Shown here: one piece after another, positions 5,397 to 63,435 of the stretch
Numbering within the stretch: position 1 is the first letter of the stretch
How the letters are laid out: each line of letters starts with the position of its first letter
Source of the DNA: Podarcis gaigeae
Lineage: Eukaryota
DNA length: 64,000 nucleotides
Assembly: GCA_964106915.2 (NCBI GenBank)
Contig: OZ066927.1
Strand: one strand, 5' to 3'
Position numbers and translations under genes: made by a program
Notes under the pieces: model-generated
Told to the model about the DNA's origin: nothing
What the model saw: only the letters and a program-made list of their open reading frames with translations
The model's database searches: none

Positions 5397-5549
5397 CTAA
5401 ACATGAATGACAAACTCAGGGTTAGTGTAGGAGAATCCTGCAAACTCGTTCTGGTCCAAGTTCATGATGAAGAGTTTGTCGGTGGGCGTGAGTTCCACAG
5501 GCTGCCTCGTGAACTCCTTATCGAAGTTGGAAGTGTCGTGTTTGTCTTT
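5397..5549 (-). CDS. PRKCB: PKC-betaI-specific V5 exon, [50 protein letters not shown]
   Basis: Acceptor catccaacag|AAA with branch-point-like TTTAAC about 23 nt upstream; 50 codons then TAG; turn motif LTPTD, hydrophobic motif FAGFSY. Confidence 0.97.

Positions 5550-12705: not shown

Positions 12706-12741
<36 letters not shown>
12706..12741. repeat. (TC)18 microsatellite
   Basis: Direct reading. Confidence 0.98.
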
Positions 12742-12743
<2 letters not shown>

Positions 12744-12766
12744 GCAACCCAGAGCTTTGCAACTTA

Positions 12767-12959
12767 AGGAAGAGCATATGGGGCTGCCTGGCAAAGAGTC
12801 AGACCCACCGGGACCAGCTAGCTCAGAATTGTCTACACTGATCAGCAGCAGTGGCTCTCTGGGGTTTCAGACAAGAGAATGTTTCCAGCCCTTGCCGCAG
12901 ATGCCATTGGCAACTGACCTTCTGCATGCCAAGCAGATGCTCTACCACTAAGCTACAGC
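12767..12959 (-). mobile_element. Squam2-like SINE
   Basis: Similarity to the other copies in the window. Confidence 0.7.
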
Positions 12960-13627
12960 ACGGCAAATCTGCCAGTTTCAGTTCGCCTCAAGTTCTCATT
13001 TATCCAATCTTAAGATGACTTCTGCACATTTCCAAATCTGTTTGCAATTTTTATTTTTATTTTTAAAAGCCCTCAAGAAAATTTATCACCATTTAAAGGC
13101 TCATCCTCACATAGTTTTTACCCTGCTCTTTCCAGGCACAGCTCTGCGCTTTTAAGTTACATGTCCGAGCGTCCTTTTTTGGCCATGAAGACTTCCCTAC
13201 AAAACCCCCCTGCTCTTTAAAGCGGAAGTGCAACAAATGGCAATTAGGGTTTTCCATGGATTGTGGGTTTTCATGAGGAAAGCTCTGGAGGAGACAAAAG
13301 GCTGCTCAGACATGTAGCTTTAAAATACGGCACGTGTCCGGAAAGCATGGAGGAAAGAAAGGTGAGTGTGGATATGCCTTGAGTGCAAGTATCTCCTAAT
13401 ATGCACATTTTTTGTATGCAATTTTCCCACAGTGTGGGAAACAGGACGTTGAACTTGAGGGACCCCTGGTCTGATCCAGTTTCAGGGCACACCTTAGTTT
13501 CTTAGGGGCAACACAGTGTCTCAAGCCATGTGTTAAAATGCAGGACCTGTCAGATTCCTGTCAAGTTATCTCTGGGAATGCATGTGCACAATTTAAAGTG
13601 AAGCATGGAGTGGAAGCGGGAGGTTGA

Positions 13628-13940
13628 ACCCAAGAACAGCCTCCTGGATCAGGCCAATGGCCCTTCTAGTCCAGCATCCTGTTCTCACAGCCGGATGTCC
13701 CTATGGGAAACCCAGAAGCAGGACCCAAGCGCAAGAGTTGCTCTCCTGTCCTGTGGTTTCCAGCAACTGGTATCCAGAAGCATTGCTGTCTCTGATCATG
13801 AAGGCAGAGCATAGCCATCCTGGCTAGTAGCCATCAATAGCCCTCTCCTGCATGTATTTGTCCAATCCCCTTTTAAAACCATCCAATCACTGTCTCCTGT
13901 AAAATTAGAGTTTGCCTATGTGCTGTGTAAATAAGTACTT
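13628..13940 (-). mobile_element. CR1 LINE 3' end (another short copy at about 14074-14250)
   Basis: Same 3' UTR family as 557-992. Confidence 0.75.
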
Positions 13941-15095
13941 AATGCTGCCTTTAGCTTGCTTTCCCTTCCCCCAAAGCATCCTGAGAACTGTAGTTTGATG
14001 AGGAGGCTGAAAATGCTCTGTAAGAGATCATCTCCTCCCCAACAATTCACAAGGGTCCTCAGGGATAATGCTCATAAGAACGTAAGAAAATGCTGCTGGA
14101 TCAGGCCAGTGGCTCATCTAGTCCAACATCCTAGTGGCTCATCTAGTCGATTTCCCATACGCCAACCAGATGCCTGTGGGAAACCCGCAAGCAGGATTCG
14201 AGCACAAGACCCCTCTCCCCTTCTGTGGCCTCCAGAAACTGCTATTCAATTTGTGTATGTGTAGATCCAGGCATGCCCCGCTCCCCAAGTCTCCTTCACT
14301 TCATGGAGATTTATGGGGTCCTACAACCTGGCTGTGCTTTCTGCACCCCCACATTCAAGACCAAAGGGAGAAAACTCAGCACCGTCAATTTGCAATGCAA
14401 AGGCAATCTGCAGCCGTTCCTGTGCAGCTGCAGTAAAAAATGGCTGTGGGCTGCATCTGCATTCAGGCTGGATTCAGTCGGGTTGCAAGGACTCAAAAGG
14501 AAACGGGTTCACGTGTGCTGAATGATCCCTCCTCCCAAAGGTTCCCCAACTTTTTCAGGAGATAGCACCCTTTGAAAAAATGCGGGAGGGATTCCGCAAT
14601 GAATTTTGTAAAAGCAAGCAAAATAGCCCAGCCTGCAAAAGTGAAAAGGCAGTAACAGCTGGTCCTTTTGCAAAATACGTAATAGAGGCAGAGAAGGATG
14701 GCAGCATCTGCAGGATTTTTACAAGTTATTAAATTAATCCACTGCTTGTCCCCTAATCTAAGGGTGGGGAACCCGTGACTCTCCAGATGTTGTTGGACTG
14801 CAACTCCCAGCAGTCCCACCCGGCATGGGCTAAGGTCAGAGATGATGGGATGTGGAGTCCAGCCACATATGGAGGGCCACAGCCCCCCTGCTCTAAACCA
14901 AGGACTAGGTGGCTTTTCTCAGGCTGATTTTGAAGCAAATTGGCTTTCTTCCCAAGCCTTGTGTCCCATCCCAAGTGTTATTAAGCCTACAGAAAGAAGC
15001 ACCTTTCTTTTCCCCACAGTCTTTGAAACATGGTCATTCTAGTATCACCACAAAATAAATTCAGGTCATGACGGCTAATGGTTTGCAACAGAGGA

Positions 15096-15105
15096 TGTCA
15101 CCACA
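15096..15105 (-). promoter_or_regulatory. Candidate post-stop 5' splice donor of the betaII exon (TGTG|GTGACA), exon end at 15102
   Basis: The motif is in the sequence 68 nt after the betaII stop. It matches my recollection of the mammalian donor that joins the betaII exon to the betaI exon. Confidence 0.6.
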
Positions 15106-15169
15106 ACAGCTGCCGGGAGTAGATGGTAATGGATGCGGGAGGGTGATGCTTATGGTCTACAATGGCTAC

Positions 15170-15328
15170 TTAGCTCTTGACTTCAGCTTTAAAAAACTCA
15201 GAGTTACAAAAGGAAAATCCTTCGAATTCTGATTGGTCAATGTTCCTGATGACTTCCTGGTCGGGTGGTGTTAAGACAGGTGGGTGGCGAGTGAAAAACC
15301 GGTCGAAGTTTTCGGCGTTTCGTCCGCA
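15170..15328 (-). CDS. PRKCB: PKC-betaII-specific V5 exon, [52 protein letters not shown]
   Basis: Acceptor ttcatag|TGC after a long polypyrimidine tract; 52 codons then TAA at 15170-15172; NFD, turn motif LTPPD, hydrophobic motif FEGFSF. Confidence 0.97.
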
Positions 15329-16011
15329 CTATGAAAGGGGAAAAAAAGAACTCATGGTAGGTGGCGAAAAGGGGGAAAGAAAAGCGGGAGGAGGAGAAAA
15401 AAAACAAAAACCAACCCAAATGCAAAAGTCGGAGGTGGTTTTTGCCACATCCCCACCCCGTCCCAGGCTCCAGCCCCCCACCCCCGCCCCTGGTGGTCAG
15501 GCAAAGTATCTCCAAATGAGCAAAACGAGGTGAACGAAAAAAGAAACAATGCAAAATACTTATGACTCCTTTGGCGGGAGGGTGGATCTGATTGCAACCG
15601 CGGAGTATTTTGTCATGGAGGTGCTGGGGAACTGATAAGCTGTCAGCCAGCCACCCGGCAAGTAATTGTAGGAGAAGGATGAGATGACAGGGCAATTACT
15701 TGCAGAACTCCACCAGCCGCATGCAATACCGTACCTGTCCCAGAATGTGCCACATGCATGGGAAGGTGTGTGTGTGCGGGGTGGCATCTCTCTTTTGGAA
15801 AAACAAACACATTATACTTGTATATCCTGCTCCTGCACAGAGTTCTCCATCGTCTCCCATCCAAGGGACAGATCAGGTTCACACCCGCTTAGCTTCAGCC
15901 AGGCTGCAGCCTCAGGTGTCCCCAGACCGCACCCTCTTGCAAAAAAAAGAGAGACTGGAGTTTCAGCAACATGCTTCCGGGGACCTGTGCCCCCGCTCCA
16001 TTTTAAGCCCA

Positions 16012-16316
16012 ATCAGAAGGTCGGCGGTTTGAATCCCCGCGACGGGGTGAGCTCCCGTTGTTCGGTCCCTGCTCCTGCCAACCTAGCAGTTCGAAAGCAC
16101 GAAGTGCAAGTAGATAAATAAGTACCACTCCAGCGGGAAGGTAAACAGCGTTTCCGTGCACTGCTCTGGTTTGCCAGAAGCAGCTTAGTCATGCTGGCCA
16201 CATGACCCGGAAGCTGTATGCCGGCTCCCTCGGCCAATAAAGCGAGATGAGCGCCGCAACCCCAGAGTCGGCCACGACTGGACCTAATGGTCAGGGGTTC
16301 CTTTACCTTTACCTTT
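16012..16316 (+). mobile_element. Sauria SINE, 5'-truncated
   Basis: Body closely matches the other copies in the window; ends in (ACCTTT)n. Confidence 0.9.
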
Positions 16317-18096
16317 TTAAAAACCGGCTGCTCAATCTGACAAGGCACCAAGGGGATACCACTACTGAGAACCACTGCCCACTTCTGGGCACATAGGTTC
16401 ACCCCAATCTCCCCTCAGAAAGGCCAGGAAATCTGCTGTGAGAACAACAGTATTTCAATTACCAAGGAGTCCAAACTAGGCACTGTGACACACCTGTCTG
16501 TTTACCCCTCTTCTCTTCCAACTGTAACATTGAGTCATAAGCCCTCATTTTGCATATTTTCTAGGCCCTTCCCCCACCCCACCTCACATGAATGGCTGCT
16601 TCTGGAAGGGAAGGAAACCAAGGAAAGAACGATGTCACACATGGCAGGGAGGACCAAATTGGTCGAGATAGCAAGCCAGGTGTGACTGCAGTTGTGCGAT
16701 CCCCTCGCCCCCACAGCAGATCGCAAGTGCAGACACTATAATGTCTACTTTGAGGCTGGGTTCCTCGGAGGAAGAGTTTGATCAACCAGTCATTGCCATG
16801 ATAGCTTGGGGCATCTGCTGAGTCATTTCGTTGAGCAGCACCACTTATGCAAGTTCTCAAGATTTCATTTCATGGAAACACTTACGGCACACCCATTTTC
16901 AGACAAATCAAGTTTCAGCGGCTGAGGGCCATTGTTTGTAAGAACCAATGATTAAAGAAGAATACCAGCATAGTTTCAGTTTCCCTCTGTTTCCCAAGTG
17001 TTTCCCATTAATTTGTGATTTCCTCCGTCCCCCCAAAAGAAGTCTGCATGAAAATTTGTTTGCATTTCCCTGAGAGTGCTCATTTTTGCACGTGATTCTG
17101 TCTGATGCAAGCATATTTTTTTTGCAACCAATTTTCCCAACACAAGGTAGTTTTGAACATTATTGTCACCAGGATATGCATTTTTAGAGAACTGCACCAT
17201 AAAATTCAGAGCAGTGTGGAGTTCCAAGGATGTGCTTCAGTTTGTTCACTGGCCGGCAATTGCAAATTGAGTACATCCAAAGTAACAAGAGAACAGGAAA
17301 AAATTATCTCCCTGCCCCCCACCCAAATCCCTATAATCCAAGCCTTTGCCTGCGCCTACTGGGCTGTTTGGGTTGCGATCTATCAGCTCTGAAAAGAGGA
17401 CCTTTAAGTGTCTAGCTCATACATTGCAAGCTCAGAGAGGATGCTTTTAAGGGAACACAAGAACATCTTCTATGGGATTCGACTCTGCCAATCAAAGGGC
17501 TTGTCAGCGTCAGCATTAATGGCTTCCCTTTAATGGTGACTGAACTGTTGTTCATATCAAACGGACCATCTAAGCCTTGCTCTCTTGGCGTGATGCCCTC
17601 AGAGGAAATGGAGGCGCTTAGAAGTACCGTACATCCCTCCTTCATGCACACACACAGTTTTTAAAAAGTAGCCACTCATCCCAGGCAGTAGCTTTTTTCA
17701 CCGCTGTGTTTTTACCCCCTGCATGGTATTTAACTTTCATTTGCTAAGAAAAACAATTTGCATTTTTAATAAACGTAACAGCAGGCTCTTAAAAAAAATT
17801 AATTATTCAAGGCAAACACTTGCAAACTGTCAAGCCTCTTCAGCTTCTCACAACTGGGAGCTTGTAGCAGGGAAAGGAGGCTACTCTGGGGTCCACGTAT
17901 TCCTTCCCCAAATCCCACGACCACCGCAGGATCTTTCAGCAAAAAGTGCCCCACCACCAACCTTCCTTTCCAGAGATCCAAGCAGAAAGCTGTTCCCATC
18001 ATGCTGAGTCCACTGGAACCCAGAAAGTGGCCTCATACCAGGTTCCAATATTTGCCCATCAAACAGCAGTGTCATGGGCAAAAAAGGTCTTCTCAT

Positions 18097-18099
<3 letters not shown>

Positions 18100-18135
<36 letters not shown>
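18100..18135. repeat. (CT)18 microsatellite
   Basis: Direct reading. Confidence 0.98.
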
Positions 18136-18137
<2 letters not shown>

Positions 18138-18997
18138 CCATAACCAGAGATTGAACTCACAACCTTTCCCATGAAAAGCATAATAATTTTGTCCACCAGT
18201 GAAATACAGTCCCTCCCCATAACCATTGGAGGTAGTGTTGAGTGAGGTCTGATTTCAGCAGAGACATTTACCATGGGCTACAGCTGGAAGGTACCCAAGG
18301 GTCATCTAATCCAACCCCCTGCCATGCAGGAATTGCAGCTAAATAATTCCTGACAGATGACCACCCCACTTCTGCTTAAAAACCTCCAATGAAGGAGAGT
18401 CCAACACCTTCCAAGGAAGTCCTTTAGATTCTTTTGGAATCTTAGGAAAGGCTGGATTCTTTTAGAACCTGCTGCTGTATCCAATCTAGTGCTAGGTTAA
18501 AGTCACTTAGCGGTATACTTGTTCCACTCGTTTTGCACCAGTGAAATGTTGTTGCACAAGATAACGCATAAGCAGGTTGCTGGCAACTTTGTGGCACAAC
18601 GGATTGCGAAATCCATGGTGCAATCAGTTTCTGTTAGCGCAGGTATGGCGTCGGATTCATCTGTTGAGCAACATTAAAACTCACTTTGCACTAGAGAGCC
18701 CTATGCCTGGAAAATCCAAGAGCTAATTTGCGTCCCCGAAGAGGCCTATCGAAAATATGAGAAGAGCAGATATGCTGTGTTTTGGCTTGTGGTCTCTGGA
18801 AGCACAGATAGCCTGAGACCTGGATATGCCCCCTGCTACAAGGAGAACCTAATTTCCTAAGGCCAGTGGGGGCTGCTAACTTCTAGACATCTGGTCCTGC
18901 TGAAATAAATAAAAGGAGAGGGGCCTTTTCAGGGGTGGTCTCTCCTTAGATAGGCTCCTAGGCAAGCCCTGGTTCAAATCTCAATCATGCCCCAATT

Positions 18998-26545: not shown

Positions 26546-28344
26546 GAAGTTGGGGAGCGCACTCCCTTTCCTTTTAGGAGTTTGCAGAAAGTGCCATTAT
26601 CCAGGGATTGGCACAGAAACGCTGGCCGGACACCAGATCCTCTTTGGGATAAGAATTCTCCCCGGCTTTTGGCGCCTGCTCATAAACTATTCAAGCTGCT
26701 GCCTGCCTTTTACCTGCTGAGTGAATTACCACGTCATGAATGATTCAGGCGTACAGTGCAGTTGCTGAGCTAGAGGTTCCGAGGGAGCAAAAAGGACCTT
26801 TTCTCAGCCCCTTCTCCAAGAGAAAGAGAGAGGTGTGGGGGGACGGGACTCCAACTCAGGTCTGGTGGCAGAGATGGAGCCCAGGATAGGAGACCCCGAC
26901 ATACAAGCCAGTGAGAAAAGCCAATAGTGATTTGAACATTCAGAAGTCTAACAGTCTCAGTTGGGTGCCAGTTGCAAAACTCTTAAAAAAAGGAAGGACC
27001 TTTTGTCCCTGTCCTTTCTCCCCCCCCCACCCCACCCCCCAGTGAGCAGAGCACGGCTTAAGGCTCCCATGTAGCCTGAGTTAATGAAACCCCACTTCTG
27101 GTACCGGGGCTGCTCCTGCCTCTCTGCAGGCTTGTGATTTAAGAATGGCATTTTGGCCAGACGGAAACCAGCAGAGTGTTTTCCATAGACTGGCTAAAGG
27201 TTATGTTGTCTATGCCTCCCATGGGCGACTTTCAGGAGACCTTGGCATCACCACGTGGCCTTCTCGAGCTGAACGCACTTAGAGCTAATGCAAGAAAGTG
27301 ATCACAGGCACATCTTTCTCAGAGAACAGGCACGTATCAGGCAAGCTTTTCGGAGCGGGTACAGGGACATCCCATGCCTTGCCTTGGAAAAGAGAGCCAG
27401 CAACTCTGCTCCCCACTTCTGTGGAGTTTTGTGGAGTTGCAGAGAACTATAAATCAATCCAGGCCTAGTTCTTGCAAACAACAGCGGTTGAGGCCACCAA
27501 CCTGCATCTCAGCTGCAGGTGAGAAGTGAATGAATCAAAGCTCATAGGATGCTGCCAGCATCTCTGACTGAATGCCTCCCTCAAAAAGACTCCTTCATTA
27601 GGATGTCAAGGAGAAAACTAGGGTAGACATTTTCTACCCAATATGTACTGGGGATTTATCTTATTTTATTTTTGTATGGAGGACATAGGAGCCAACTCCT
27701 AGGTGACGAGGTCCCTTTGCCCCTCCAATAAAATATCTGAGGGGCCCCCCCCTGTTGATGTGCATTGCCATTCAAATGGTGTGCATGTGCAGTGTCTTGT
27801 TATTGATTATGTGGGGCTGGGCTTACCTGCCCCCCTCCAATATTTTATTCAAGTTCGCACCCCTGTTGGAGGATATTCCCATCATGTGAGCCCCCATCCT
27901 GCAGTCTGCGCACCCACAGGATGACCACCTCACATCCTGCATGTGTGAATCAGTCAACAGAAAGCAGCCCTTAATGCAGGACACCGACATAGTCATGGCT
28001 ATAAGAAAGGGGACATGTTATTGTCCGGGTCAAGAAGGGGCTGTGATAACTGGTCTCATCCACACCCAGCATTCCAAGCACCCTGATGCCCCTTTAAATA
28101 GCCACGGCTTCCCCTAAAGAATCCCGAGAACTCTAGCTTGTTAAAGGGTGCAAGGAGTTGTTAGGAAAATCCTTTGCAGAGGTGCAATTCCCAGCGCCCT
28201 TGACAAACTGCAGTTCCCAGGTGTCTTTGGGGGAAGCGTCGAAGGTGGCACAAGAGTGCTTGAAATGTACGCTGCAGATGCGAAGCGAGTGTCTCTGCTG
28301 GAAGAAGAGAATTGTGGCAGTGAGACGGGAGGGGAGGAACTTAC

Positions 28345-28485
28345 AGCTTTGGGCTTGAAAGGAGGCTGGATCTCTTTCCGTTCAAGTTTGTCCCAATCGA
28401 TGTAGCGGAAAAAGGCGTGCTCCCTGATATCGCGCTCTCCTTCAGGGCCGCACCCCAAACGCTTTGCTGGATGCTTGGTCATGAG
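28345..28485 (-). CDS. PRKCB: PKC-beta last common exon (approx. exon 16), [47 protein letters not shown]
   Basis: Acceptor ctctccaag|CTC (AAG type), donor GCT|gtaagt; 141 bp; PxxP motif of the AGC tail. Confidence 0.97.
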
Positions 28486-33254: not shown

Positions 33255-34130
33255 CTTAACTGTCAGAAATTTCTTCCCATGTTTAATAGAAATCTCCTTT
33301 CTTGTCATTTGAATCCATTGTTTCTGGACTGGTCCTCCCCTCTGGAGCAGCAGAAAACGAACTTCCATCACGTTTTATGTGGCAGCCTTTCAGATATTTG
33401 AAGATGGCTATCATATCAACTCTCAGTCTCCTCTTTTCCAGGCTAAACATACGCAGCTCCCTCAGCTGTTCCTCAAAAGGCTTAGTTTCCAGATAGTCTT
33501 GGTCCCTCCTCAGCACAGCTCCCAACTTGTCAACATCCTTCTCAAATGTTGGTGCCCAGAAGTGGACACAGTCCTCCAGGTGGGGTCTTACCAAGGCAGA
33601 ATAGAGTGGCACTACTACTTCTCTTGATCCAGACACTAGACTTCTTTTTGATGCAACCTAGAATTGTATGAGGGATGCGGGTGGGGCTGTGGGTTAAACC
33701 ACAGAGCCTAGGACTTGCTGATCAGAAGGGCGGCGGTTTGAATCCCCGCGATGGGGTGAGCTCCCTTTGCTCGGTCCCTGCTCCTGCCAACCTAGCAATT
33801 CGAAAGCACGCCAAAATGCAGGTAGATAAATAGGTACCACTCCGGTGGGAAGGTAAACGGCATTTCTGTGCACTGCTCTGGTTCACCAGAAGTGGCTTAG
33901 TCATGCTGGCCACATGACCCGGAAGCTGTATGCCAGCTCCCTCTGCCAATAAAGCGAGATGAGCACTGCAACCCTAGAGTCGTCCACGACTGGACCTAAT
34001 GGTCAAGGGGGTCCCTTTACCTTTACCTTTAGAATTGCATGAACTCCACCCCCACCCCCGCTACTGCACCACACTGTTGACTCATACTTGTGGTCCGCTA
34101 AGACCCCTCGATCCTTTTCACATGTCACTG
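33255..34130 (-). mobile_element. CR1 LINE fragment, interrupted by a Sauria SINE
   Basis: SREVVVPLYSALVRPHLE...FSLEKRRLRVDMIAIFKYLKGCH. Confidence 0.88.
33672..34029 (+). mobile_element. Sauria SINE, full length, inserted in a CR1 fragment
   Basis: GGGATGCGGGTGG head, ACCTTT tail, TSD tagaattgtatga / tagaattgcatga. Confidence 0.93.
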
Positions 34131-61780: not shown

Positions 61781-63435
61781 AACTCCTGCCAGCCCCTGCA
61801 GCCACCAGGGTCAATAATGAGGCATGATGGGAGTTGGAGTCTGACAAGATATGGAGGGTCATAGAGGTTCTGCATCTCTGCTTTAAAGCTACAAAAATCT
61901 AATACAGTGTCAGATGAAATCACTATGCCAAAGTCCAAGCAAATTTCTGAAAACTACAGAAAACAATATTCAGTGATCTTTGAAGTGGTACAATGGGACA
62001 GTACACCAGGCTGTTAATCAGAAGGTTGGTGGTTCGAGGGACAGTTGTGGACAGGATTCATTCATTGCATGGGGTTGGACTAGATGACCCTCAGGGTCCC
62101 TTCCAACTCTGCAATTCTCTGATTGCATGATCTACAAAAATCATTTAAAAGATTTTTAAGACTGAAAAGGAGAGCCAATCTTTTAGTGCATTGCATTATG
62201 GGAAAACAAAGATGGCTGTGCAGCTGAGGGAACTATCCATCCAGATAGGAGACATCCCAGTACAGCAACCTACCAAGGGCCCTGAAAGCTCTGGAGCTGT
62301 CTGTGGGCCCCTAAACAATTTGTTCAAAGTACAGCTTGGGAATTGCAGACAGTGGTTCACAGCTCTATAGTGGCACCTAGTGACCAAAAACAAGCATTAC
62401 AGCACATACAAAAGAGAGGGCAAAACGCCGCCATTGGTTATCATTCAGAAATTAAGCATTCCCACCCCCTCCCACCCTAAAACATGCACATACACTGCCA
62501 GAGATTCACTCCAAACCAACACAACAACCCACAGAACAAAAACTTCGTGTATCACCTTATAAGTCTTTTGCCCTGTGGACTGGATGGCAGCTTCGATATG
62601 TGGGGAGGTGATTTTAATGGGGGAAATAACCTTGGGGGAGGGGGGAATTATATAACCCCCTCCCTGCAGCCCTAATCCATATCAGCACTTTTCGCTGTCC
62701 CACCCTAAAGCTGGTATCAACAGCCATGCAGGTTCCAAACTCATCACGTCCAGTTTGGTCTTTAGACTGTTTGGCAATGAGATACATTCAAAAAAGAAAT
62801 TGGATGTGTTGGGAGAACATTCCCCGGAGTGTAAAACACAAAAATTAAAATCGATTATATTTCAAGATGAAAGCAGTCCCCGGAGAGCGGGCTCCAGTCA
62901 CTGTAAATAATTCTCTAATGGTTCCCCAACGCTGCTCAGGCAATCGAATTTGGCTCCTGAAGGGTGAACATCTCCCAACAGATGGGGAGACGGTGCCCAG
63001 GGCTGGTGTTCGCTCCTTGCAACCTCTGCAAGAGAGGAAGAGGCAGCCATTTCCTGGAGTACAGAATTAAATGGGGGGTGGGGGTGGGAGAGGCTCCCGA
63101 GGGCTTGCTACAGCAGCCCATGTTTCATGCAGTAGCCTTTGTACAGCTTGCAAATGTGCGACGCCATGCAGGCGGAAAGCCAAACTGTTTCACACAACTG
63201 CAAAAGATGGGGGGGGGGAACAAAACCCCATCCTTTGGGGAGATACTGGCGTACAGCACAGTTTACTCACGAGAAGTAACTCGCATGAGGGAAGGAGGAG
63301 GAGGCTTTGGACAAAACCCCATGCTTCACAGAAGCATAGAATTGTAGGGTTGGAAGGGATCCCAAGGGTCATCTAGCCCAACCCTCTGCAAGGCAGGGAT
63401 CACAGTTGAAGAATCCATGACACGATTCTTTGTTG

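Follow-up and report, generated by a model that had tools for sequence, protein, structure and literature searches.

A predicted hairpin and a UGCAUG pair ahead of the PRKCB betaII exon of Podarcis gaigeae: neutral cluster or candidate splicing element

The window, i.e., the whole 64-kb stretch of DNA analysed here, encodes the 3' half of PRKCB on its minus strand. Ahead of the betaII exon it carries a single-copy element in which an 11-bp perfect inverted repeat encloses a loop with two UCAU motifs, with two UGCAUG hexamers close by. We favour, at about even odds (probability roughly 0.5), the reading that hairpin, UCAU loop and UGCAUG pair came together neutrally, by chance, within an intron of 13 kb and have no selected splicing role; a chance cluster is about as likely as a working switch. 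Any function of the hairpin and the hexamers is something that we infer.

The last common exon of PRKCB is separated from the betaII exon by an intron of about 13 kb, and the relevant exons and acceptor lie as follows:

28345..28485, minus strand: last common PRKCB exon, with a GT donor at 28344, joining in frame to the betaII or the betaI acceptor
15329..15404, minus strand: betaII acceptor, pyrimidine tract and AG, from sequence
15170..15328, minus strand: PRKCB betaII coding end, the proximal alternative 3' exon, from translation, starting at 15328 after the AG
5397..5549, minus strand: PRKCB betaI coding end, the distal alternative 3' exon

The last of these is presumably the betaI end. 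The final 17 residues of the betaII end were similar to the betaII antibody peptide printed in PMC3537621. PRKCB has been described as having two proteoforms, produced by alternative 3' splice sites at the end of the gene (PMC8303486), and the exon layout in the window matches this account. Past the betaII stop, the first canonical poly(A) signals are two tandem AATAAA at 13050-13061 (minus strand), which would make the betaII 3' UTR about 2.1 kb long.

A preliminary description of this DNA had claimed a perfect inverted repeat in non-repetitive intron, a 24-nt pyrimidine-rich loop with two UCAU, two sense-strand UGCAUG sites, and a distance of 330 to 430 nt from the betaII acceptor. All of these claims held when the element was re-examined:

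15753..15758, minus strand: UGCAUG (RBFOX consensus), distal copy, predicted unpaired at 0.39-0.40
15720..15725, minus strand: UGCAUG (RBFOX consensus), proximal copy, predicted unpaired at 0.27-0.40
15693..15703, minus strand: 5' arm of the 11-bp perfect stem in pre-mRNA orientation, mean pair probability 0.79-0.99
15669..15692, minus strand: loop, 24 nt, pyrimidine-rich, predicted unpaired at 0.83-0.97
15658..15668, minus strand: 3' arm of the 11-bp perfect stem

The two arms are exact reverse complements. Read on the minus strand, which is the PRKCB sense strand, the loop has pyrimidines at 20 of its 24 nt and contains a tandem UCAUC-UCAUC (15687-15678), the sole tandem UCAUY pair in the window with both strands counted. 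The UGCAUG copies are 33 nt apart and precede the start of the betaII exon (15328) by 392-430 nt, with no other sense UGCAUG from 12741 to 17643. Another close sense pair, 39 nt apart, was seen at 63126-63170 (minus strand) in an upstream intron; such pairs recur. A pattern search and a DNA search of the species' own genome (1.51 Gb in 211 contigs) each returned one match to the element, these searches passing over very common words.

In predictions for the pre-mRNA strand, the mean pair probability of the stem was 0.96, 0.96, 0.99, 0.99, and 0.79 across five contexts of 141 to 1061 nt, and at 141 nt the stem was predicted at 0.01 on the opposite strand versus 0.96 on the transcribed strand. 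An 11-bp hairpin with an open loop is therefore predicted to form in the pre-mRNA. As modelled, its folding energy appears ordinary, with z-scores of +0.71 for 141 nt and -0.06 for 601 nt; the 60-nt window that holds the hairpin had a z of -1.55 and ranked 130 of the 1135 60-nt windows across 5610-28300. A z of -4.51 obtained for a trimmed 52-nt hairpin was disregarded as circular. In the scan of 5.6-28.3 kb, several of the lowest z-scores, reaching -5.6, fall together at 18010-18260 and 16680-16750 (minus strand), far below that of the hairpin. Long-range inverted repeats to 18155-18731 were short, imperfect, and not all nested, and were taken as chance.

Beyond the hairpin, the last intron segment holds two further stems, which sit between the 11-bp hairpin and the betaII acceptor, and it is bounded upstream by a repeat:

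15850..15935, minus strand: old dispersed repeat of about 90 nt, with eight further copies (77-87% identity), forming the upstream limit of the unique segment
15552..15612, minus strand: second perfect stem, 9 bp with a 43-nt loop, pair probability 0.40
15405..15444, minus strand: third perfect stem, 9 bp with a 22-nt loop, immediately ahead of the long pyrimidine tract, pair probability 0.98

Similarity to the repeat ends near 15842-15850, about 90 nt upstream of the element, without reaching it. This repeat is possibly a 5S-derived SINE remnant, as it seems to resemble the internal promoter part of 5S rRNA. Directly upstream of the unique segment, a SINE-like insertion at about 16000-16320, which we take to be a Sauria SINE, has similar open-frame text near 33824, 52555, 54676, and 56962. 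A transposon origin of the element, miniature inverted-repeat or other, was rejected, since the genome held no further copies and the adjacent repeat ends before it. Rfam covariance models gave seven matches at E up to 5 within 14000-17000, none of which overlapped 15658-15758, and descent from an Rfam family (miRNA precursor, snoRNA, cis element) was therefore also rejected. Between the second and third stems, a G-rich tract at 15447-15494 has a predicted pairing partner in the betaII pyrimidine tract, in its C-rich portion (15360-15400, minus strand), and this modelled pairing could mask the tract. Among yUnAy branch-like motifs in 15340-15845, the one closest to the AG is CUGAC at 15500-15496, some 170 nt away. 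A cryptic exon near 15625-15560 was considered, because AGs come after a CUGAC at 15646 that looks like a branch site; contigs from two relatives had no joint there, an outcome that fits with or without such an exon.

Relatives were compared through sequencing runs. The search found 24; the stretch was present in 20 of them, and at least half of its words in 19, which indicates that these relatives are near-identical. Over 15500-15845, a contig from one run (X15) differed at one place, and a contig from another (X17) at four places plus one insertion. None of the five distinct changes fell inside 15658-15758 (P = 0.18 under uniform placement, for two close relatives). The stem and both UGCAUG were unchanged in the two relatives that yielded a contig, both of which are about 99% identical. 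Two other runs, X23 (0 of 12.8 million reads matched, about 12% of the run) and X20, yielded no contig and carry no weight either way. Stem matches at seven metagenomic loci were set aside as not orthologous, with unrelated loops and flanks without similarity. The X15 and X17 contigs, from runs guessed to be RNA, cross 15500-15845 unbroken and without a joint at a depth of about 7. Five runs of this kind contain 54-65% of the words of a stretch in which exon makes up about 27%. Such intron coverage points to intron that was unspliced or retained, or to DNA that entered the library.

How often such an arrangement arises by chance was estimated post hoc, with every test framed once the pattern was known and within a scan of very many windows. 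For 64 kb, 150 Markov simulations gave an expectation of 0.62 perfect stems of at least 11 bp with a loop of up to 30 nt (probability of at least one, 0.45) and of 0.77 close UGCAUG pairs, versus two pairs seen. Among the stems in all 150 simulated windows, three had two YCAY in the loop, one had two UGCAUG within 100 nt, and none had both. The same stem search in 400 kb of the contig returned 71 matches, 16 of them from one CA/GT run, leaving 56 distinct, several of which look repeat-derived. Two YCAY in the loop were found in 0 of the 142 stem orientations from this 400 kb, and the joint NOVA-plus-RBFOX pattern likewise in 0 of 142. A comparable story of stem plus motifs, scored with 12 loop motifs and 8 hexamers as a panel of other RNA-binding motifs, could be fitted to 22 of the 142 background orientations, or to 2 of 110 without the CA/GT run. 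Tandem UCAUY occurred nine times in the 400 kb, both strands counted (0.72 per 64 kb of strand), and two UGCAUG per 500 nt in 32 of 1600 genome windows (2%).

Locally, the features were rarer. Dinucleotide shuffles of the 506-nt segment 15340-15845 reproduced an 11-bp stem in 5 of 1000 cases (0.5%), at least two UGCAUG in 25 of 2000 (1.25%), and a tandem UCAUY in 18 of 2000 (0.9%). The segment's three perfect stems of at least 9 bp, a cut-off picked after the list of stems was known, were matched in none of 1000 shuffles and in 7 of 760 genome windows. Single features are common per 64 kb, their clustering ahead of a regulated acceptor is mildly uncommon, and the local enrichment in 15340-15845 is modest.

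If the cluster is neutral, the stem would nonetheless fold in nascent RNA, since the pyrimidine-rich loop is predicted to give no competing pairs, and folding need not by itself influence the choice of an acceptor 330 nt away. Replication errors such as template switching and slippage can yield a short perfect inverted repeat or a 5-nt tandem duplication. Other elements would in that case determine the betaII/betaI choice, for example those of the mammalian SRSF5 pathway, in which the SRSF5 binding site lies downstream of the betaII exon. This insulin-PI3K-AKT2/CLK1-SRSF5 (SRp40) pathway promotes betaII (PMC3537621, PMC8482499); it shares a splicing decision with the candidate element, but involves another factor and acts in the opposite direction, as betaII is activated. 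The neutral reading agrees with single features that each occur about once per 64-kb window, with the ordinary folding energy, and with the absence of Prkcb from the Nova2-dependent last exons described below. Against it stand the three events rare in shuffles (0.5%, 1.25%, and 0.9%), gathered in one unique segment before a regulated acceptor, the joint pattern found in neither the 150 simulations nor the 142 orientations, the strand specificity of the stem, and the five changes in relatives that all spare the element (P = 0.18).

The functional alternative that survives best, although on balance rather unlikely, is that RBFOX, bound to the UGCAUG pair, would repress the proximal betaII acceptor and shift splicing toward the distal betaI in RBFOX-rich cells. 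The three stems would then at most shorten the distance to the branch region, and what the loop reads would not matter. In calcitonin/CGRP, too, repression falls on the proximal one of a pair of alternative 3' ends. RBFOX bound upstream of an exon acts as a repressor, and a pair of UGCAUG causes calcitonin exon 4 to be skipped (PMC2018636); more generally, upstream binding of NOVA or RBFOX favours exon skipping (PMC10551640). From these precedents, one would expect sites of this kind ahead of the betaII acceptor to repress betaII. The PRKCB element resembles the RBFOX repressor elements of calcitonin/CGRP exon 4 and ATP synthase F1gamma exon 9 (PMC2018636) in having exact UGCAUG twice, on the pre-mRNA strand and upstream of the regulated exon. 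The motifs are 33 nt apart and locally rare, with three perfect stems in the stretch leading to the acceptor, and judged from its sequence the element could work like an upstream RBFOX silencer. However, the calcitonin/CGRP and F1gamma elements have one exonic copy and one in the upstream intron and are mutationally proven (PMC2018636), whereas both PRKCB copies lie about 400 nt from the AG and are predicted to be 60-70% paired. The near-identity of the relatives compared also limits what the unchanged motifs can say in favour of RBFOX.

Published data sets and reports were searched for such control. RBFOX-related supplement tables in the available part of PMC5538552 had no entry for Prkcb, the T-cell lists there covering cassette exons only. 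Prkcb was likewise not found in the accessible supplements of PMC8600936, where the gene is missing even from the expression table, nor in those of PMC10676425 (part) and PMC4930328 (two small files); none of these blanks decides regulation. No RBFOX or NOVA control of PRKCB splicing was reported in the literature searched, which comprised titles and abstract openings, with subscription papers largely outside it; this agrees with the preliminary description, whose author knew of no such module for PRKCB. Papers naming PRKCB together with RBFOX2 and splicing included none on control of PRKCB, as judged by title and abstract start, and PRKCB is merely listed in the available part of PMC4864242.

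The module originally proposed, in which NOVA would bind the tandem UCAU of the loop and, together with RBFOX, repress betaII in neurons, we consider improbable. Functional NOVA clusters usually have at least three YCAY. The element has two per 45 nt, a density equalled or exceeded at 18.6% of window positions. Its two loop UCAU are predicted to be unpaired at 0.84-0.98, and NOVA1 binds UCAUY (PMC2018636), so that a tandem UCAUY in a predicted single-stranded loop is a point of likeness to NOVA elements (PMC2018636, bioRxiv 10.1101/2025.07.24.666508). The NOVA KH3 SELEX element, in turn, is a hairpin of 20 nt in which UCAY is preceded by W and followed by C, and which has an ACCNNN stretch (bioRxiv 10.1101/2025.07.24.666508). 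The PRKCB hairpin does have a C trailing UCAU, but differs in having two repeats only, in the greater length of its stem and loop (46 nt), and in its UCAU following G or C, with no ACC in the loop.

Some alternative last exons (ALEs) are regulated by NOVA: Nova2 loss alters 17 of them in 9 genes in mouse brain (PMC6092797). Among these, Sept8, like PRKCB, has a proximal and a distal 3' exon to choose from, but there NOVA works through a conserved region that is dense in YCAY and lies at the proximal poly(A) site (PMC6092797), whereas the PRKCB candidate is a hairpin upstream of an acceptor. Conserved RBFOX sites are present in about 15% of NOVA targets (PMC10551640). In the available part of PMC6092797, Prkcb was absent from the Nova2-knockout list, which holds significant events only (FDR 0.1, change 0.2) and from which Sept8 and Cdc42 were recovered as search controls, and also from a list of 65 motoneuron ALEs. 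NOVA1 may have compensated for the loss of Nova2, and mouse may not carry the element. The NOVA half of the proposed module is thus the weaker one, because of the two YCAY, the mismatch with the KH3 SELEX hairpin, and the absence of Prkcb from the Nova2-knockout list. Since the element lacks two defining features of NOVA elements and shares with RBFOX elements just the motif, we assigned it to neither class.

We regard as very unlikely a more elaborate arrangement, in which a chain of three hairpins in the last 500 nt would place the RBFOX pair and the NOVA loop at the betaII acceptor, which would thereby be silenced in neurons and muscle, with PKCbeta feeding back on its own betaI/betaII ratio. 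PKC-mediated activation of RBFOX2 is mentioned in a review (PMC11380049), from which it would follow that PKCbeta steers its own isoform ratio in a feedback loop; such a loop would oppose the insulin-SRSF5 arm. The chances are slim that the open C/U-rich loop instead receives another pyrimidine binder (the KH domains of hnRNP K or PCBP, or PTBP1) that would tune the betaII acceptor: the pyrimidine content of the loop and the binding of hnRNP K KH3 to UCAU in a terminal stem-loop of lincRNA-p21 (bioRxiv 10.1101/2025.07.24.666508) fit this idea, but C/U-rich tracts are common.

The C-terminal tails of PKCbeta I and II are different, and the ratio of the two proteins has been studied in insulin signalling, B cells, and brain. 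Known splicing control of PRKCB is hormonal, through SRSF5, and the literature searched yielded no tissue-specific repressor ahead of the betaII acceptor. If the favoured neutral cluster is correct, the window has no functional feature here; if the element is functional, it would be another instance of a standard type of splicing element. RBFOX, and perhaps NOVA, would in that case form a tissue-specific repressor arm in the control of betaII, with a short, mutable target.
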